Of a stretch of DNA of 31,652 nucleotides, positions 4,269-27,439 are shown piece by piece; the first letter of the stretch is position 1; each line of letters begins with the position of its first letter. The translations under genes and the position numbers were made by a program. The notes below the pieces were generated by a model. The model made no database searches. It was not told where the DNA came from and was given only the letters and a program-made list of their open reading frames with translations. Source of the DNA: Candidatus Altimarinota bacterium (GTDB taxonomy: Bacteria > Patescibacteriota > Gracilibacteria > BD1-5 > UBA2023); NCBI GenBank assembly GCA_043720755.1, contig JAYSSB010000130.1:1-31652 (forward strand). The letters are read 5' to 3'.

Positions 4269-5339
4269 ATGCAATATAAAGATCCCGGCCTATTGGACGA
4301 AGATCGATCGGCCGAAGAAATGCGTCAGGATTACTTTTTCGAGGAACTTGTCTCAGGTCCGGCGCCGGTTTCCTGGCGTGAAAAAAAATTAACTGAGTGG
4401 AGATCATTCCCTATTTATGATCAGAATGGATCTGGATCATGTGTCGCTCAAACTTTGCGGAAAATGCTTGGGATCTATGTTCACACAAAAACTGGCAAAT
4501 TTGTACCACTTTCCGCATCTCATATTTATCAGCGACGTAGCAACCGGCCATCATCCGGAATGCATGGACATGATGCTTTCAAGATTGCTCAGAAAGGTAC
4601 AACTCTTGAGATCCTTGCTCAGTCTGAAAAAATGACTGACGCAGCTATGGATGAAATGCCGGTCAATGATTTTAATGCATCTATCGGAGAAGTATTTAAA
4701 ATCGGAAATTATGTCGCAATAAAAGATCTAAAGATTGATACAATCGCATCAATCATTGAGCAAACAAAAAAGGGGGTGATGGTCTGGTTTTATTTTTCGT
4801 CTGGTATTAAGCCAAAAGAATGGATCGACGTCCCTACAGTGCAACATAAAGATCTCACGGTCTCAGGATCTAATACTGCTCGCCATTCGGTCACTGCAGT
4901 CGATTTCACTTTATACAAGGGTAAAAAAGCTCTGATCATTGAGGACTCATGGGGTCTGGATGCTGCTATGCAAGGGCGCAGAATCATCACTGAGGACTTT
5001 TTCAATGCCCGGTGCTACTATGCAGCACATTTCATGAATTTCGCTCTTGAGGATCAATCTGAGGCCGTTCCGGAGGGGAAACCGCGTCACACTTTCTCTG
5101 CAGATCTGGATTTTTCAGTTACCATCACATATTCAAACGATGTCAAGATGCTGCAGAATTGTCTCAAGTATCTCGGACTCTTTCCGACAAATGTCGAATC
5201 GACCGGATATTTTGGAGCAGTGACTCAAAAAGCCATCGAGAAATTTCAACTTAATGAGGGAATTTCTACTCCGGGAGTCGCTGGATTTGGCCGCGTGGGT
5301 CCACGGACTCGGGCGGTATTGAATCGTTTATTCGCTTAG
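4269..5339 (+). CDS. Putative endolysin: papain-like (C1) cysteine peptidase plus C-terminal peptidoglycan-binding domain
   Basis: DQNGSGSCVAQ (Gln/Cys), HSVTAV (His) and EDSWG motifs; C-terminal VKMLQNCL..TGYFGAVTQKAIEKFQ..GRVGPRTRAVLN matches PG_binding_1. Confidence 0.8.
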   Translation: MQYKDPGLLDEDRSAEEMRQDYFFEELVSGPAPVSWREKKLTEWRSFPIYDQNGSGSCVAQTLRKMLGIYVHTKTGKFVPLSASHIYQRRSNRPSSGMHGHDAFKIAQKGTTLEILAQSEKMTDAAMDEMPVNDFNASIGEVFKIGNYVAIKDLKIDTIASIIEQTKKGVMVWFYFSSGIKPKEWIDVPTVQHKDLTVSGSNTARHSVTAVDFTLYKGKKALIIEDSWGLDAAMQGRRIITEDFFNARCYYAAHFMNFALEDQSEAVPEGKPRHTFSADLDFSVTITYSNDVKMLQNCLKYLGLFPTNVESTGYFGAVTQKAIEKFQLNEGISTPGVAGFGRVGPRTRAVLNRLFA

Positions 5340-6167: not shown

Positions 6168-6311
6168 CCCCCACTCCCCCACTCATGACGTCTCTCAAAT
6201 GATCAGTTTTGAGATATTTCATCGACGATCAAGAGGGGAGGGGAGTGGTAAAAATAAAAGCAAAACATCCGAGAAAGCGTTATATATAGCCGTATATTAC
6301 TGGGGGAGTGG
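6168..6311. repeat. C-rich / G-rich inverted repeat cluster (CCACTCCCC / GGGGAGTGG)
   Basis: (CCCCCACT)x2 at 6168-6183; reverse complements at 6240-6248 and 6302-6311; internal hairpin tctcaaa/tttgaga at 6193-6214. Confidence 0.7.
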
Positions 6312-6434
6312 TCGATGTATATTCAAATATACAAGCAATCAAATATCCGTATTTAAAGTATTTAAAATCTATCCCCGGCCGATAAAATCTCGGATTGACG
6401 CGATGGGTATATCATAAATATAGGTCCGCTCTTT

Positions 6435-6447
6435 TAAGGAGGTCATC
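6435..6447 (+). promoter_or_regulatory. Extended Shine-Dalgarno TAAGGAGGTCATC
   Basis: 12/13 match to TAAGGAGGTGATC, directly before ATG 6448; the only well-placed SD I found at a gene start. Confidence 0.8.
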
Positions 6448-6615
6448 ATGGATCATCAACGGCAGCCGGAGACATCTCATGAAATCCAGCTCGAGCTCGC
6501 ACTCGAAATCTATCACTCGCCTATTCCGACGCCGCGGCCGGTCGAAGCGCAATCGCGTCCATTCGTCTGCCCGGGATACTGCCCGATCTGCCCGAAATGC
6601 CGGGAATCAAACTGA
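6448..6615 (+). CDS. 55-aa Cys-rich small protein (not in ORF track): MDHQRQPETSHEIQLELALEIYHSPIPTPRPVEAQSRPFVCPGYCPICPKCRESN
   Basis: Hand translation; strong SD; C-terminal CX3CX2CX2C motif. Confidence 0.7.
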   Translation: MDHQRQPETSHEIQLELALEIYHSPIPTPRPVEAQSRPFVCPGYCPICPKCRESN

Positions 6616-6630
6616 AAGGAGGTGATCCAA
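6614..6630 (+). other. 16S rRNA 3'-end complementary element GAAAGGAGGTGATCCA(A), overlapping the TGA stop
   Basis: Exact reverse complement of the conserved UGGAUCACCUCCUUUC; no ATG at SD distance downstream. Confidence 0.8.
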
Positions 6631-6670
6631 TCTAATCAGGCGGAAAAAATATCGCCGACTCCCCTACTCG

Positions 6671-6696
6671 CTCCCACGAATTTCGTGGGAGTTTTT
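6671..6696 (+). terminator. Intrinsic terminator
   Basis: Stem ctcccacga-att-tcgtgggag followed by TTTTT. Confidence 0.8.
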
Positions 6697-6698
6697 AC

Positions 6699-6754
6699 TT
6701 GTCCACACAATCCACAGTCTCCCCACTTTGCGAGCGATGATGATGCGCTATAAT
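6699..6754 (+). promoter_or_regulatory. Putative early promoter (TTGCGA...GCGC-TATAAT) preceded by tandem DnaA-box-like 9-mers
   Basis: TTGTCCACA 6699-6707, CAATCCACA 6708-6716, GTCTCCCCA 6717-6725; TTGCGA 6728-6733; TATAAT 6749-6754. Confidence 0.5.
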
Positions 6755-6831
6755 GACGAACAGATGAAGCGACGGAGGTGCTCTTTGACAACTAAATATC
6801 AAAGTTATAAAAATTTAATTTAATTCCGCTT

Positions 6832-11169: not shown

Positions 11170-11580
11170 ATGAATGAGTCAAAATTCAAAGATCTGAAAT
11201 GTCCGGAATGTGACGCTCCGATGGAATTGGTATTCACGAATTATCGTTATAGAAACGGAAAGCAACGTCCGCGATATCAATGCATTCATTATCCGGATTG
11301 CTCAGGTGCTCACGGATCTCATCCGGACGGAACTCCACTCGGGGTCCCGGGTGATTCAAAGACACGAATGCTCCGACAATCGCTGCATGAGATATTTGAA
11401 ATCAAGTATCCCGGACCGATCGAAAGAGTAAGGAAAAAAACGGCGCTCTGGTTATCTGGAAACGGATTCCCGGATCACATTGGAGAAATGTCGGCTATAG
11501 AATGCCGCACAGCTATCCACATAATTATCAACAAAAAGACGCAATCACACGATGATGAAAATCAGATGAGTGCGCTATAA
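11170..11580 (+). CDS. Zinc-finger protein, DUF3268-like
   Basis: CPEC...CIHYPDC..HGSHPDGTPLGVPGD...R..LHEIF and HIGEM motifs. Confidence 0.7.
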   Translation: MNESKFKDLKCPECDAPMELVFTNYRYRNGKQRPRYQCIHYPDCSGAHGSHPDGTPLGVPGDSKTRMLRQSLHEIFEIKYPGPIERVRKKTALWLSGNGFPDHIGEMSAIECRTAIHIIINKKTQSHDDENQMSAL

Positions 11581-11581
11581 T
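11572..11581 (+). promoter_or_regulatory. Putative extended -10 promoter GCGC-TATAAT, 8 nt before ATG 11590
   Basis: Hexamer contains the upstream TAA stop; no SD. Confidence 0.55.
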
Positions 11582-11589
11582 GATTCGAT

Positions 11590-12469: not shown

Positions 12470-12673
12470 ATGAGAAATGCATCAGGTCGAGGGGTAAACC
12501 GCAGCAAAGCTCAAAAATGGGCCTCACAATGCAAACGATGCAAAAGCATCGAATCAGTGAAACCGGACGGACGCTCTCACTGGATTCCATCGATCGTCGA
12601 TCTGCCGTCGCTGCAGCATCGAGAATGTCCGTCATGTAACATTAAATTCAAAGATGAAAAAGCCGAATTATAA
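12470..12673 (+). CDS. Small zinc-ribbon protein
   Basis: CKRC...CPSC motifs. Confidence 0.55.
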   Translation: MRNASGRGVNRSKAQKWASQCKRCKSIESVKPDGRSHWIPSIVDLPSLQHRECPSCNIKFKDEKAEL

Positions 12674-13160
12674 TCCGGAAATGTGCGAATGCTGCAGTCA
12701 GTCAAAGACTTATTTGCTCGCCATTGATCCGGGGACTATCAAGATCCTCAGAGCCGTAGCACGCGCAATCGGGATCAAAAAAGTAAACGTCATCCATGCT
12801 CACAAAGAGCTGCTCGCGAATGGATACATCACAGCAAACGAACGATCAAACATAGCTCGTCCGAGAGCTCATGGATTGATTGCAAAAGTGAAAGGTGAAT
12901 CAATGGCCGGAAATTACTGTCTCACGAAAAAAGGAGCAGACTTTCTCCGAGGATCTCGAATCCCTAAATTTGCGATCATGAGTAAAACTCAGCATCATCA
13001 AATCGGATATCTTGAGCCGGAAGAATTGACAGTCACAATCAATGACGTCATGCGTGGAGAGGAATACTGGGAGGGCATAAATTACACGATTGAAGCCGGT
13101 CGAGTGGTCTATGATCCGGAGGGCGAAAGTATCACGATGCCACTTTTTGCACAGCAATGA
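12654..13160 (+). CDS. Hypothetical protein, possible winged helix with N-terminal Cys cluster
   Basis: CECC motif, then helices and a GLIAKV...YCLTKKGADFL wing-like motif. Confidence 0.6.
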   Translation: MKKPNYNPEMCECCSQSKTYLLAIDPGTIKILRAVARAIGIKKVNVIHAHKELLANGYITANERSNIARPRAHGLIAKVKGESMAGNYCLTKKGADFLRGSRIPKFAIMSKTQHHQIGYLEPEELTVTINDVMRGEEYWEGINYTIEAGRVVYDPEGESITMPLFAQQ

Positions 13161-13179
13161 TCAAAAAATCAAACTGATC

Positions 13180-13189
13180 GCGCTACAAT
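13180..13189 (+). promoter_or_regulatory. Putative extended -10 promoter GCGC-TACAAT upstream of the acidic peptide gene
   Basis: Same GCGC-TAyAAT motif as at 6745, 11572 and 28742. Confidence 0.45.
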
Positions 13190-13236
13190 GAAAAAGGTCG
13201 AAACGATTATCCAACAAATTCAATCGATTGAAAAAT

Positions 13237-13413
13237 ATGTCAGAAGACAACATGACTGACGGCGCTCGAGCAGAAGCAGAAGCTCGAGAAGCTGATCAAT
13301 CCGGTGAAGCTGAAACGTCAGCCGAAGCGGAAACAACTACTGAGGCAGCTCCGGAAACGGAAGCCGCTGCAGAAAGTACAGAAAGTGAGGACACAGCGGA
13401 AGCCGCTGCATAA
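13237..13413 (+). CDS. 58-aa highly acidic, low-complexity (Glu/Ala/Thr) protein
   Basis: 19 Asp/Glu and 2 Arg, with no aromatic, Leu, Ile, Val or Lys residues; aaatATG start preferred over the track's TTG at 13228. Confidence 0.7.
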   Translation: MSEDNMTDGARAEAEAREADQSGEAETSAEAETTTEAAPETEAAAESTESEDTAEAAA

Positions 13414-13426
13414 TCGTAATCTTTTA

Positions 13427-13476
13427 GATCTCGGGAGGGAGCTCCCGAGATCAATAAAGATCTCGACGATCTTTTT
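13427..13476 (+). terminator. Tandem hairpins / intrinsic terminator
   Basis: gatctcgggag-ggag-ctcccgagatc (11 bp), then aaagatc-tcgac-gatcttt running into a T-tract. Confidence 0.7.
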
Positions 13477-13494: not shown

Positions 13495-13926
13495 ATGGAA
13501 ACACCATCACAGCCAAAAAATCCGATGATCGAAGCCGCTGAAAGATTCATCGAAAATATGACATGGTCACAGGACGCAAGCGATCATGAAAAAAGTCTCG
13601 TCAAAGGAAATATCATGGGATTTGTTTCGTCTCTCGGCGGTCAGATTCCGGCTGTCTCACAGTACGCATCAAAGCAAGCTGGATCACGTCGAAAGATATT
13701 CCCGATCGCGACTGAGATTCTCCGACAGATGATTACTGAGGGAGTAGAAGTTAAATATAAAATCATTTCAGGTCTCCCGGCTGACGCAAAGATTCTCGAT
13801 ATTTGCCCGGACATTTTCAATATGGGAAGCGCATCGCTACTCGTAGAATCTGAATCATTCGATCAGATTGCAGAGGGTGGTCAGTATCCGATGGGGAAAG
13901 ATATCACGGCAGAGACAATCGCATGA
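13495..13926 (+). CDS. Hypothetical protein
   Basis: 143-aa ORF, ATGA-coupled to the next gene. Confidence 0.7.
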   Translation: METPSQPKNPMIEAAERFIENMTWSQDASDHEKSLVKGNIMGFVSSLGGQIPAVSQYASKQAGSRRKIFPIATEILRQMITEGVEVKYKIISGLPADAKILDICPDIFNMGSASLLVESESFDQIAEGGQYPMGKDITAETIA

Positions 13927-14378
13927 TCGAATTCACGATATATGGAAATCATGAGAACAAAAACGGCAATCCGCTCCCCAAAGCTCGCAAGACAGGGAGA
14001 CAGCAATATACAGCGGCCGCTCATCGATACCATGATTATCTCGACTATGTCCGCACATCATTCATCGATCAATGCGCTCCCAACGGACGTGCAAAATTCG
14101 ACGCGAAACATCTTTCATTCGTCGGACGAAAGCCGCTCAATACCGGAGATCGAAAATGCAAAATGTGGATCTTTATTGAGTATGGAAACAATGCTCACGG
14201 AGATCCCGAAAACATTTTCGGAGCCATCGCGGACGCCTTATTCGAGAACGACAAATATCTCGCCGGAGATATCGACTTTGCTCCGGACCCAACCGGAGAG
14301 GGACGTGTCTATGTCAAAATCGAAATCTCAGAAACTCGATGTGGTGTACCTACTCGGAAACGGAAGCAAGTGGAATGA
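13923..14378 (+). CDS. rusA: RusA-like Holliday junction resolvase (divergent active site)
   Basis: GNPLPKAR N-terminal motif; DPENIFGAIADAL..ND aligns with RusA DLDNLQKAAFDAL..DD; ends with GRVYVKI strand. Confidence 0.65.
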   Translation: MIEFTIYGNHENKNGNPLPKARKTGRQQYTAAAHRYHDYLDYVRTSFIDQCAPNGRAKFDAKHLSFVGRKPLNTGDRKCKMWIFIEYGNNAHGDPENIFGAIADALFENDKYLAGDIDFAPDPTGEGRVYVKIEISETRCGVPTRKRKQVE

Positions 14379-15060
14379 TAATGAGATCAGATATTCTCTC
14401 CGATCAATCGAGCTCAATCTGCCGCATCGTAATGTCTATATCGTCGGATCAAAACCGGCATGGATGCGAAATGTGATTGAGATCCCGGTCGCTGATTTTT
14501 ATCAATCAATCACTCCCGGATTCAAAGCAAAAAACGCACTCTGGAAAATAAAAAATGCGTGCAATCGAATGGAAGTCACAGACAATTTCATTCTCATGAA
14601 TGATGATTTCTATTTTTTGAAATATACTCCACAGGTCGAAACCTATCATCTTGGACCATTGATCGATGCAGAAAAAAAAGGAGCTCCACATCATTCTCAG
14701 TATGATCATTCTATTCGTCAAACAAGGCAACTGCTCACATTCATGGGGATGCGAGAGCCTTTAAATTTTGGATCTCATCATCCGATGATTATCAATAAAA
14801 TAAAATTTATTAAGATGTCGGACGCTATGGATTGGAGAGGAAATCAGTATCTATTCCGAAGTGTGTACGGTAACATATACGAAAGACATCAAGCATTAAA
14901 AATGCGAGAGGATGTTAAAGTATTTAATACCGATGATCTCCGGAGACTACAACATCGAGCTCTTATCTCCACATCGGATGACGTCGTGCTGACGAAAGAA
15001 TGGCACTCATTCATTCATGAAAAATTCCCGAGACCGTCGAAATATGAATATCATCAATAA
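14311..15060 (+). CDS. Stealth-like sugar phosphotransferase / GT-A fold protein, 249 aa (start revised from 13942)
   Basis: DVVY, NEIRYSLRSIE, NVYIVG and FILMNDDFYF motifs resemble Stealth CR1/CR2; the track's upstream 123 aa overlap rusA. Confidence 0.7.
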   Translation: MSKSKSQKLDVVYLLGNGSKWNDNEIRYSLRSIELNLPHRNVYIVGSKPAWMRNVIEIPVADFYQSITPGFKAKNALWKIKNACNRMEVTDNFILMNDDFYFLKYTPQVETYHLGPLIDAEKKGAPHHSQYDHSIRQTRQLLTFMGMREPLNFGSHHPMIINKIKFIKMSDAMDWRGNQYLFRSVYGNIYERHQALKMREDVKVFNTDDLRRLQHRALISTSDDVVLTKEWHSFIHEKFPRPSKYEYHQ

Positions 15061-17114: not shown

Positions 17115-17405
17115 ATGGAAACACCAATTCTTTCACCAATTCAGCCGATCTCTGACGAGAAAAGAAAAACTCTCATGATCAAACAAGTGGCAGAGCAAAA
17201 CGTGCTCGCAGCGGCGCAGCGATACATCAAAACTCGGGACCGGAAAGAGCTCGAGTATATTCAAGCGATCTGCGACACTCTCGACGATGCATTTTGTCTC
17301 ATGATCGATCAGACTGACGGAATCCCGGTCTGCGTGACGTTCAATCCCGGTGCAGATATTCCCACTCTCGGGGATGATGACAGATCTCCGGAGGTGCTAT
17401 CATAA
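17115..17405 (+). CDS. Hypothetical protein between terL and portal (start 17115 preferred over 17091)
   Basis: tatATG context with a -10 hexamer 8 nt upstream. Confidence 0.65.
   Translation: METPILSPIQPISDEKRKTLMIKQVAEQNVLAAAQRYIKTRDRKELEYIQAICDTLDDAFCLMIDQTDGIPVCVTFNPGADIPTLGDDDRSPEVLS
17394..17403 (+). promoter_or_regulatory. Putative extended -10 promoter GTGC-TATCAT, 7 nt before the portal ATG
   Basis: TGn plus TATCAT. Confidence 0.55.
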
Positions 17406-24554: not shown

Positions 24555-24866
24555 ATGAAAATCGAAGTCATCAAAAACGATTTTGGATATGTGTATCGAT
24601 TTGCGCTTAAAGAGCCGAATGGCACAGCAACCGATCTCACTGCGGCCACAGTAATCATCCGAGCTCGTCACTCTGAGGATGCCGGATCTACACTCTCAAA
24701 AGCTCTGACGCTTGATACTCCACTCACAAATGGAATCGCATTTTATACACTAGCTGCCAACGATTTCCCGATCCCCGGCGTATACTATGCAGAGATTGAA
24801 ATGACGGTGACTGGGAAAAAAGTCACATACCCGGGATTCACGATCGTCGTTATCCCCAAAGTATAG
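24555..24866 (+). CDS. BppU N-terminal-like (Ig-fold) fibre adaptor
   Basis: DLTAATV..., GIAFYTLAANDF..PGVYYAEIEMT..TYP pattern. Confidence 0.65.
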   Translation: MKIEVIKNDFGYVYRFALKEPNGTATDLTAATVIIRARHSEDAGSTLSKALTLDTPLTNGIAFYTLAANDFPIPGVYYAEIEMTVTGKKVTYPGFTIVVIPKV

Positions 24867-24925
24867 CGAGCGAATCTGCGTGTGAGTTTATAAAATGAGG
24901 ATATCGGAAAACAACTTGTCAAATT

Positions 24926-27098: not shown

Positions 27099-27108
27099 GC
27101 ACTATAAT
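27099..27108 (+). promoter_or_regulatory. Putative -10 GCAC-TATAAT, 7 nt before ATG 27116
   Basis: TCGACG 18 nt upstream is a possible -35. Confidence 0.5.
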
Positions 27109-27115
27109 GAAAAAT

Positions 27116-27439
27116 ATGGAAAATAGAATCACAATCAAATTCATTCATGGGTATCGTCCAAATATAAAGGGAGATATTGCAACTGTCTCAAAAGAGGAAG
27201 CAACTCGACTCATTCGATATGGATATGCGGAGATCTATGTCACAGATTTAGAAAAGGAAGCCGCTGCGCTCGAGCAAATAGCAGATCCGGAAGCGCTCAA
27301 AACTGAGCCGGAGAACACAGGATCAGCTCAAGATGAGGCAAAGACTGAGCCGGTGATCGAAATTGAGGCTCAGGCCATCTCGGAAGCTCCACAGGATAAA
27401 TCAATTCACGGACCGAGAAAGAAAATATCGAAAAAATAA
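27116..27439 (+). CDS. Small head-associated hypothetical protein (start revised from 27053)
   Basis: Short IKF...KGDIATVSKEEATRLIRYGYAE domain plus an acidic disordered tail, typical of post-capsid genes. Confidence 0.65.
   Translation: MENRITIKFIHGYRPNIKGDIATVSKEEATRLIRYGYAEIYVTDLEKEAAALEQIADPEALKTEPENTGSAQDEAKTEPVIEIEAQAISEAPQDKSIHGPRKKISKK

Follow-up and report, generated by a model that had tools for sequence, protein, structure and literature searches.

Messenger RNAs can be protected by sequences that bind the 30S subunit, as with the STAB-SD of Bacillus thuringiensis cry3A and the polypurine 5' stabilizer of phage SP82, and in translationally coupled operons a Shine-Dalgarno (SD) sequence lies at or over the upstream stop codon. 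Phages also carry morons, promoter-gene-terminator units inserted between modules and defined by architecture only, and further known systems include small RNAs (sRNAs) derived from 3' untranslated regions (UTRs) and RNA sponges such as 6S RNA for RNA polymerase. To our knowledge, no sRNA or sponge aimed at the 3' tail of 16S ribosomal RNA (rRNA) has been described. Ribosomes on a strong SD block RNase J1 on the Bacillus subtilis hbs mRNA (PMC5737220), and in Bacteroidia rpsU is the one gene with an extended SD, translated by ribosomes without bS21 (PMC9976891, PMC13000453, PMC7797042). Here we describe a phage transcription unit in which a gene for a 55-amino-acid (aa) protein is combined with two such tail complements. 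It was found in contig JAYSSB010000130.1 of an assembly from a sediment sample, assigned to Candidatus Altimarinota (GCA_043720755.1); the window, meaning the whole 31,652-nucleotide (nt) stretch analyzed, is that entire 31.6-kb contig (C130).

The original prediction for this locus, made from the letters alone, described a small gene bracketed by two complements of the 16S tail, and this arrangement was confirmed, with TAAGGAGGT placed 4 nt before the ATG at 6448 and GAAAGGAGGTGATCCA lying over the TGA stop. As also predicted, a hairpin (hp1, 6639-6656) and a terminator (6670-6697) close the unit. Both elements recur in homologous cassettes of other phages, and these comparative data strengthened the observation itself; the framing originally given to it proved mostly unsupported. 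On the evidence below, both SD-like sequences are real and conserved, and pairing with the 16S 3' tail is their simplest explanation. Our favored interpretation, which we regard as tentative, is that the 3' module may act in cis as a tether holding a 30S subunit or a post-termination ribosome. The unit is composed of the following features.

6395..6424, + strand: probable promoter, TTGACG followed by GGGTATATCATAAATA, the exact -10 box being ambiguous.
6435..6443, + strand: Shine-Dalgarno sequence TAAGGAGGT, followed by CATC and the ATG at 6448 (spacer 4 nt).
6448..6615, + strand: small gene of 55 aa with its TGA stop at 6613-6615, based on homologs and their alignment.
6614..6629, + strand: extended anti-SD complement GAAAGGAGGTGATCCA, overlapping the TGA stop, with no start codon behind it.
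6630..6638, + strand: linker ATCTAATCA, of which (A)ATCT is common to the family.
6639..6656, + strand: hairpin hp1, formed by GGCGG (6639-6643), the loop AAAAAATA and TCGCC (6652-6656).
6670..6697, + strand: intrinsic terminator, GCTCCCACGA, loop ATT, TCGTGGGAGT and TTTTT, with the stem at 6670-6692.

The original prediction that no other inspected gene start carries an SD was borne out by a count of the 46 other starts, none of which has a strong 6-mer SD (0/46) and one of which has a 5-mer SD (1/46). These starts read ...AAATATG or have a TATAAT-like hexamer 6-8 nt before the ATG. Binding of the 5' SD to the canonical 16S tail amounts to -13.8 kcal/mol, versus a mean of -5.3 kcal/mol at the other starts. 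An exhaustive HMMER search for the small protein returned one homolog, on L026, a contig that shares synteny and 85% identity with the window; the family was then extended by profile searches and contig look-ups to 15 members from several SD-less phage lineages. A strong 6-mer SD precedes 12 of the 15 family genes versus 2 of 149 neighboring genes (Fisher 8e-14, the members being related to one another), a further two of the 15 have AAAGGA-type runs upstream of the start, and the phages are SD-less around the cassette. The 5' SD is kept across the family despite changed spacing and start codon (ATG or GTG); the L026 homolog, for example, starts with GTG preceded by AAAGGAGGTG. The promoter block at 6395..6424 is conserved in L026, L030 and L036, and other family members show a clear TATAAT 35-45 nt upstream of the start codon.

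The window protein combines an N-terminal QLEL... motif with a C-terminal Cys knuckle, FVCPGYCPICPKCRES. Across the family, the N-terminal motif reads QLELPLDERYRxAEQYALDL and the knuckle is of three kinds, FVCPGYCPxCPxCRES, CxRxGYCYCPKCNPR and CPxHxxFxYxCPxCNPR. The last 17 codons of the window gene and of its L026 homolog differ by six synonymous and three non-synonymous changes, and the C-terminus is under purifying selection. No Pfam family matched the small protein, no match was found among GenBank phages, the Atlas returned hypothetical viral clusters only, and the AlphaFold prediction reached a pLDDT (predicted local confidence) of 66 with no confident fold. On the basis of these comparisons, we consider the 55-aa open reading frame (ORF) a real gene, defining a new family of phage miniproteins, and its SD a genuine initiation signal. 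This SD may merely give strong expression, or it may limit expression to a ribosome state as in Bacteroidia rpsU.

The 3' element overlaps the strongest binder of the canonical 16S tail in the window, since a sliding scan gave -31.0 kcal/mol for 6611-6635 versus -21.8 kcal/mol for the next best site. No ATG, GTG or TTG lies 3-15 nt past its GGAGG, in agreement with the prediction that no start codon follows, and the sole GTG nearby (6622) falls inside the SD itself. The downstream frames are not shared with L026, a 2-nt indel shifting them, and a conserved downstream ORF or mini-peptide was rejected because reading frames are not conserved. Any given 16-mer is calculated to be expected about 1.5e-5 times in the 63 kb of both strands, and the heptamer AGGAGGT shows no enrichment in the window (4 seen versus 2.0 expected). 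A chance origin was excluded by the 16-mer odds, the strongest-site scan and conservation. A 16S fragment or primer artifact was likewise dismissed, as the match covers 16-17 nt only, the flanks are unlike 16S and the element recurs in independent assemblies. Exact-word scans for the window's own 3' UTR gave no match in viral and metagenome contigs.

Among the 15 family loci, 12 have the core G[AG]GGTG[AG]TC, located 3-28 nt from the stop and usually preceded by GAAAG plus or minus one base; a bulged form in L041 raises the count to 13 of 15. Substitutions within the core are A-to-G changes opposite an rRNA U, which keep G.U pairing, or else single-nucleotide bulges. The element is retained while the family ORF diverges to 28-63% identity, and in L038 and L042 it is positioned 17-28 nt past the stop. 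Use of the element as an ordinary SD by a downstream ORF, which the original prediction had named as evidence against it, was seen in one of the 15 loci: in L041, GAAAGGAGGTG drives a true downstream gene of 114 aa, and the full module then reappears behind that gene at 662-712. The inserted L041 gene (318-662) encodes a secreted-looking protein and has its own extended SD. Because the L041 module follows this extra gene, the 3' element marks the end of the transcription unit, and the module belongs to that end rather than to the small ORF.

Behind the tail complement, the linker reads ATCTTGAC in most other lineages, and a hairpin equivalent to hp1 is present in 12 aligned family loci, with differing stems. 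In an alignment of seven sequences, double changes affect four of the five pairs, with 97% of cells paired; with 39 distinct sequences, 90% of cells are paired with 53 double-change cells, compared to at most 40% paired in slid controls. Over both alignments, the slid controls reached at most 43% of paired cells. The terminator stem of L026 has been swapped for a different complementary arm pair, and other family members likewise end in a GC-rich hairpin and a T run. Because the hp1 stem covaries and a terminator always follows, the 3' module is read as RNA. Rfam returned no relevant match for the window, eight family loci or four enterobacterial loci. A long-range pairing of 6449-6457 with 6621-6629 was considered and rejected, as it amounts to 9 base pairs (bp) in the window and 6 bp in L026, shows no further conservation and has a z-score of -0.64.

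In order to identify related modules in other phages, IMG/VR contigs were scanned with the pattern GAGGTGRTC-N0-4-TCTTGRC-N4-8-GGAAYAGAC. This pattern describes what we define here as the canonical motif, composed of GAGGUGRUC, UCUUGRC and a hairpin with a GAAYAGA loop. The motif was found in at least 60 contigs, seven of them with the small gene. Many of these contigs are isolate prophages, with flanks matching Escherichia, Klebsiella, Salmonella and Providencia phages, and the motif is also present in Serratia phage Eta, Vibrio anguillarum H20-like phages, Edwardsiella GF-2 and an Aeromonas phage. In Serratia phage Eta (KC460990, motif at 27108-27174), it begins 2-3 nt past the last of the genes that follow holin, lysin and Rz; in Vibrio phage Her, lysozyme and endopeptidase genes precede it; and in enterobacterial prophages, it lies behind Rz/Rz1. 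Its place is always immediately downstream of the final gene in a lysis block or moron, and it offers a practical way to recognize where lysis and moron transcription units end on their 3' side. Among the matches listed, none of the phage records carries an annotated feature at the motif. A literature search on the motif words returned nothing relevant, the motif model gave no match in 150 phylum genomes, and a near-match search of complete Escherichia coli genomes with one enterobacterial variant gave no match. The lone SD island of the original prediction holds within the window but is too narrow a frame for the 3' element, a variant of a motif that phages of SD-using Gammaproteobacteria also carry.

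As the full pattern fixes the conserved blocks by construction, a scan with a hairpin-only pattern was made as a control. Among the matches listed, a GGTGATC-like core lies just upstream of 41 of the 46 hairpins with true stems versus 5 of the 34 without a stem (Fisher 1e-11), and 31 of the 41 core-bearing motifs listed also contain a 5-mer pairing with CCUCC. Because true hairpins carry the core far more often than chance matches do, the tail complement is integral to the motif. In the window, L026 and L036 the form is a diverged one: the parts follow in the same order, but UUGAC is missing, the loop differs and the scores are 18-23 bits. The window itself lacks the full set of three canonical blocks, scores 19 bits with model R1, and shares with the canonical motif the tail complement, ATCT and a hairpin. 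Because the upstream gene family is shared and the parts are arranged alike, we regard the 3' module of the window as a diverged member of a widespread phage RNA motif that has no Rfam family. This new conserved RNA motif can be studied in culturable phages, namely Serratia phage Eta and the Vibrio anguillarum H20-like phages, in one of which (KX581090) the motif spans 24853-24912.

The identity of the ribosome that would meet these elements depends on the host. The window is the largest contig of an 846-kb bin and represents a siphovirus-type phage with every gene on the + strand. Its gene order starts with the end of the tape measure gene, tail genes, a papain-like/peptidoglycan-binding endolysin (4269-5339) and two small genes, followed by a 700-nt gap holding the SD-led cassette. 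On the 3' side of the gap lie Sak4/AAA_24, SSB, exonuclease, terminase, portal, protease, capsid and tail tube genes. In the rest of the bin, TGA is a sense codon (16 per 1000 codons), with 31 ORFs of at least 300 aa under the standard code versus 366 with TGA open, and the bin genes likewise lack SDs. In the phage contig, none of 9,710 codons is an in-frame TGA, seven genes stop at TGA and there are ATGA stop-start overlaps; the phage relatives L013 and L014 use TGA in the same manner, as a stop and never as a sense codon. GGA usage in the phage (37.7 per 1000) equals that of GGA plus TGA in the bin (38.5 per 1000). Among 300 genomes of the bin's class, none was found to carry the capsid gene, a search of 400 genomes of the phylum gave remote HK97-type matches only, and no close cultured relatives of the phage were found. 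Because the genetic codes conflict and the capsid gene was not found in the class genomes, the phage contig is probably mis-binned, which flags a foreign phage within a TGA-recoded metagenome-assembled genome. The bin organism is accordingly a doubtful host, given the code conflict, the degenerate 16S tail of its relatives and the missing capsid matches.

Read-through of TGA, by which the small ORF would extend to 6753, was ruled out by the absence of in-frame TGA, the ATGA overlaps and the same usage in L013 and L014, and the L026 homolog, which stops at TAG, further counts against it. With TGA read through, the gene at 13495-13926 would join the Stealth-like gene at 13942-15060 in frame, and the gene at 12654-13160 would run across an otherwise empty gap (region 12654-13427). 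Given the standard-code evidence, these apparent fusions at 12654-13427 and 13495-15060 are probably a coincidence.

No 16S gene was found in the bin. The 16S tails were read in same-genus relatives (L003, L004, L005 and L010) and also in L001, L006 and L012. The 16S 3' end in the same-genus relatives is GGACUAUCUCUUUAUC, with the CCUCC core lost, and the tail of the bin's order reads GGACUAUCUC(U/C)UUAU, CCUCC having degenerated to UCUCU or UCUCC. The canonical tail GGAUCACCUCCUUUCU is present in the rest of the phylum (standard-code genomes). The original prediction of an exact 16-nt complement holds for this canonical tail, which is that of the candidate host group; it fails for the degenerate tail of the bin's relatives, to which the 3' element binds at -15 kcal/mol only.

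Standard-code genomes of the phylum have SD-like 4-mers at 3-29% of starts and T at position -1 in 31-58% of starts versus 56% in the phage, so that the phage start context (no SD, T at -1) resembles that of standard-code members of the bin's own small-genome phylum. This resemblance, together with the TATAAT-type -10 boxes of the phage, speaks against the Bacteroidia setting initially suggested. About 30 non-rRNA AAGGAGGTGATC sites were read in SD-poor genomes of the phylum, 15 of them located 1-7 nt before an ATG or GTG. The phylum genes with 12-nt SDs are few and often encode small hydrophobic proteins (L095, L096, L098, L105, L106, L113, L123-L126, L131, L133, L134, L137 and L138), and they may constitute a special translational class of the SD-poor members. 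The extended-SD tally takes in one unpublished genome (G468), on which no claim rests. Because they are SD-poor, carry the canonical tail and place extended SDs on few genes, standard-code members of the phylum are plausible hosts of the window phage.

From the anatomy, conservation, tail complementarity and hairpin covariation observed in these loci, we infer both the partner, the 3' tail of 16S in the ribosome, and action in cis. In the proposed mechanism, 6395-6697 is a moron-like transcription unit, complete in itself, that stands where the phage lysis region ends, comprising a promoter, a short leader with a true SD, the 55-aa Cys-knuckle gene and a structured 3' untranslated module. Through its 5' SD, the small gene alone in the phage would initiate by pairing with the 16S 3' tail, and all other phage genes would rely on SD-less or leaderless starts. 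At the other end, the tail complement GAAAGGAGGUGAUCCA would capture the 3' tail of a 30S subunit or a just-terminated ribosome in a duplex of 11-16 bp. The parked ribosome would shield the transcript end from nucleases, insulate it from downstream sequence and might pass ribosomes back to the nearby 5' SD. A function in cis is favored because the element has a fixed position at the stop codon and terminator, because ribosome-bound SD-like stabilizers provide a precedent, and because the motif is found in both SD-using and SD-less hosts.

Several points nevertheless weigh against a ribosome tether. Known SD-type stabilizers sit at mRNA 5' ends, and the module precedes a terminator that should already protect the 3' end. 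Tail pairing accounts for neither the invariant UCUUGRC of the canonical motif nor its GAAYAGA loop, and the most invariant piece, GGUGAUC(C), pairs with 16S GGAUCACC beside helix 45 instead of the CCUCC core. Among the matches listed, 10 of the 41 core-bearing motifs have no CCUCC-pairing 5-mer, and the family loci L030 and L031 lack the element, the G-run there being folded into the terminator. No RNA runs containing the window were found; four wastewater "RNA-Seq" runs hold L030-type relatives at less than 90% identity, two of the four being flagged as probably DNA, so the only runs with relatives are of doubtful nature and hold the variant without the element. In addition, the phage host is known only as a candidate group.

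A broader proposal, clearly less likely than the tether itself, is that phages ranging from those of SD-less small-genome bacteria to those of Serratia and Vibrio might share an undescribed structured RNA located after their lysis genes, the invariant 5' arm of which would dock to the universally conserved 3' end of 16S (GGAUCACCUCC...), a general device for seizing or parking ribosomes. The window would be its most extreme form, with a 16-nt match in a genome without any other SD. If this is true, phages target the 16S 3' tail by an RNA of their own even in hosts nearly without SD-dependent initiation, and such targeting would offer a reason why SD-poor hosts keep the anti-SD.

Two other readings are kept alive by the UUG of UCUUGRC, which stands at start-codon distance from the complement. 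The first, which we consider rather improbable, amends the original suggestion that the transcript suppresses SD-dependent host translation. In its literal form, that suggestion fails because the candidate hosts hardly use SDs and there is little such translation to suppress; at most, it could reach the small class of extended-SD host genes. As amended, a trans-acting sponge or 3' UTR-derived sRNA would titrate 16S 3' tails and thereby disable those few host genes or shift ribosomes to the SD-less and leaderless phage messages. The order of seed, hairpin and terminator is that of an sRNA, the duplex is far stronger than any normal SD, the candidate host genomes do contain a small class of 12-nt-SD genes, and the spread of the motif over phages of different phyla is what a universal target predicts. 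Processing and accumulation of such an RNA are hypothetical, however, and to titrate ribosomes stoichiometrically it would have to be extremely abundant. Where the hosts are SD-using Gammaproteobacteria, the SD-led genes of the phage itself would be struck too, and the motif was not found in the 150 phylum genomes, hence no host counterpart.

A decoy or miniature initiation site appears no more probable than the sponge. Here the SD and a UUG 8-11 nt downstream would load a ribosome that stalls on hp1 or translates a few codons across hp1 and the terminator. Whether transcription terminates or reads through behind the lysis block would then depend on ribosome availability, in an attenuator-like manner. 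A UUG is present at start-codon distance in 8 of the 13 family modules found by protein homology, the hairpin starts 2-4 nt past it, and the second SD of L041 has a true ATG start at the homologous position. The UUG of contigs found by pattern is present by construction and carries no such weight. Moreover, there is no start codon at this position in the window lineage (window, L026 and L036) or in L027 and L028, frames and peptides are not conserved (L037 shifts frame), and the stem covaries at the expense of the codons.

Slightly less probable again is the suggestion, also made originally, of a sensor of ribosome state, in which, in an SD-blind host, the lone 5' SD would restrict the small protein to ribosomes with an exposed anti-SD and the 3' copy would tune this response. 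Bacteroidia rpsU is the paradigm, the candidate host phylum is SD-poor and yet keeps the anti-SD, and the SD is retained in 12 of the 15 family members. Anti-SD sequestration in the candidate hosts would, however, have to be assumed, and the 3' motif occurs in SD-using hosts as well. The candidate hosts also put extended SDs on ordinary small genes, so the phage SD may simply be a strong expression signal.

An element acting at the DNA level, such as a boundary for moron exchange or recombination or a signal for packaging or replication, with its SD likeness incidental or a relic of a downstream gene since lost, is unlikely. It would agree with the cassette being absent from syntenic L013, as expected of a moron slot, with the location at module boundaries and sometimes near terminase genes, and with the GATC within the motif. 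The constant orientation to transcription between stop codon and terminator does not suit it, stem covariation with free choice of sequence fits RNA and not a protein-binding DNA site, and an SD left over as a relic would not survive unchanged next to an ORF that has diverged to about 30% identity. Finally, signals meant for the ribosomes of another organism, as originally offered, or a recent undegraded import from an SD-using donor would match the deviating GC content of the ORF (57.7% versus 46% for the phage) and the degenerate anti-SD of the bin's own lineage, but either is very improbable, as the cassette is old and kept across SD-less phage lineages, the bin assignment is itself doubtful, and foreign ribosomes are not needed because the candidate host phylum carries an exactly complementary tail.

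Further features were noted around the cassette. Non-coding repeats GGGGAGTGG(T) and an AT-rich block TGTATATTCAAATATACAAG at 6238-6340 are strongly conserved in L013 and L026, and this region may be an operator, origin or packaging region before the cassette; ACTCCCC at 6659-6665 is an inverted copy related to these repeats. GATGA(G)TGCGCTATAATGA occurs twice (6738-6757 and 11565-11583), an early-promoter type kept in L013 and L026. The sequence CGGAGGTGCT lies upstream of two -10 boxes (6770-6783 and 17385-17400) and the cassette promoters of L027 and L028 contain GGTGCTATAAT, so GGAGGTG also belongs to a promoter context in these phages. In L033, a tmRNA (tag AKQSIPSPYQAFLNETALA) and a tRNA-Met(CAT) are positioned directly upstream of the cassette (4416-4746 and 4849-4920), and a tRNA-Met(CAT) is also close to it in L028 (524-593) and L032 (1786-1858). 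Genes for a peptide deformylase and for an N6/N4 DNA methylase were also noted in family phages (L037 2176-3180; L032 441-1199).

Compared to the known systems, the 5' signal resembles that of rpsU in Flavobacteriales and Bacteroidia, a rare extended SD that is longer than normal among SD-less genes, with the anti-SD kept in 16S. This likeness, of an SD-poor genome with CCUCC kept, holds for the standard-code genomes of the phylum, which are candidate hosts only; the bin's order has lost CCUCC. The window gene differs in encoding a phage Cys-knuckle miniprotein without a Pfam match and not bS21, the probable host is not a member of the Bacteroidia, and a second, start-less tail complement is present in the 3' UTR. 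Moreover, anti-SD sequestration belongs to the rpsU case, whereas for the candidate hosts here it is only assumed by analogy. With 3' UTR-derived sRNAs and sponges, the module shares its place at the end of an mRNA and its make-up of single-stranded seed, hairpin and intrinsic terminator, and its target would likewise be a core machine of the cell; its processing and action in trans, unlike theirs, are hypothetical only. Like the SDs of coupled operons, the 3' element lies over a stop codon, and the L041 SD does serve a downstream gene, but in most relatives, as in the window, it is followed by neither a gene nor a conserved ORF, and the complement is far longer than coupling needs.

A functional parallel to the proposed tether is given by the STAB-SD, the SP82 stabilizer and hbs (PMC5737220), which also carry an SD-like sequence that is not used for initiation. 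Those elements sit in 5' leaders and act against 5'-to-3' decay, whereas the window element lies behind the last stop. A conserved hairpin and a terminator come after it, and it pairs over up to 16 nt including GGAUCACC. In its architecture, the unit resembles a moron, being autonomous, located at a module boundary and deviating in GC content. The cassette is missing from L013, the closest IMG/VR relative, which is syntenic and whose slot holds a terminator only. Because of this absence and the deviating GC content, the unit is assigned moron character, with its own terminator, a promoter that in the window itself is a probable one, and variable presence. What sets it apart from other morons is that the translation signals and the 3' RNA module are its conserved and unusual part.

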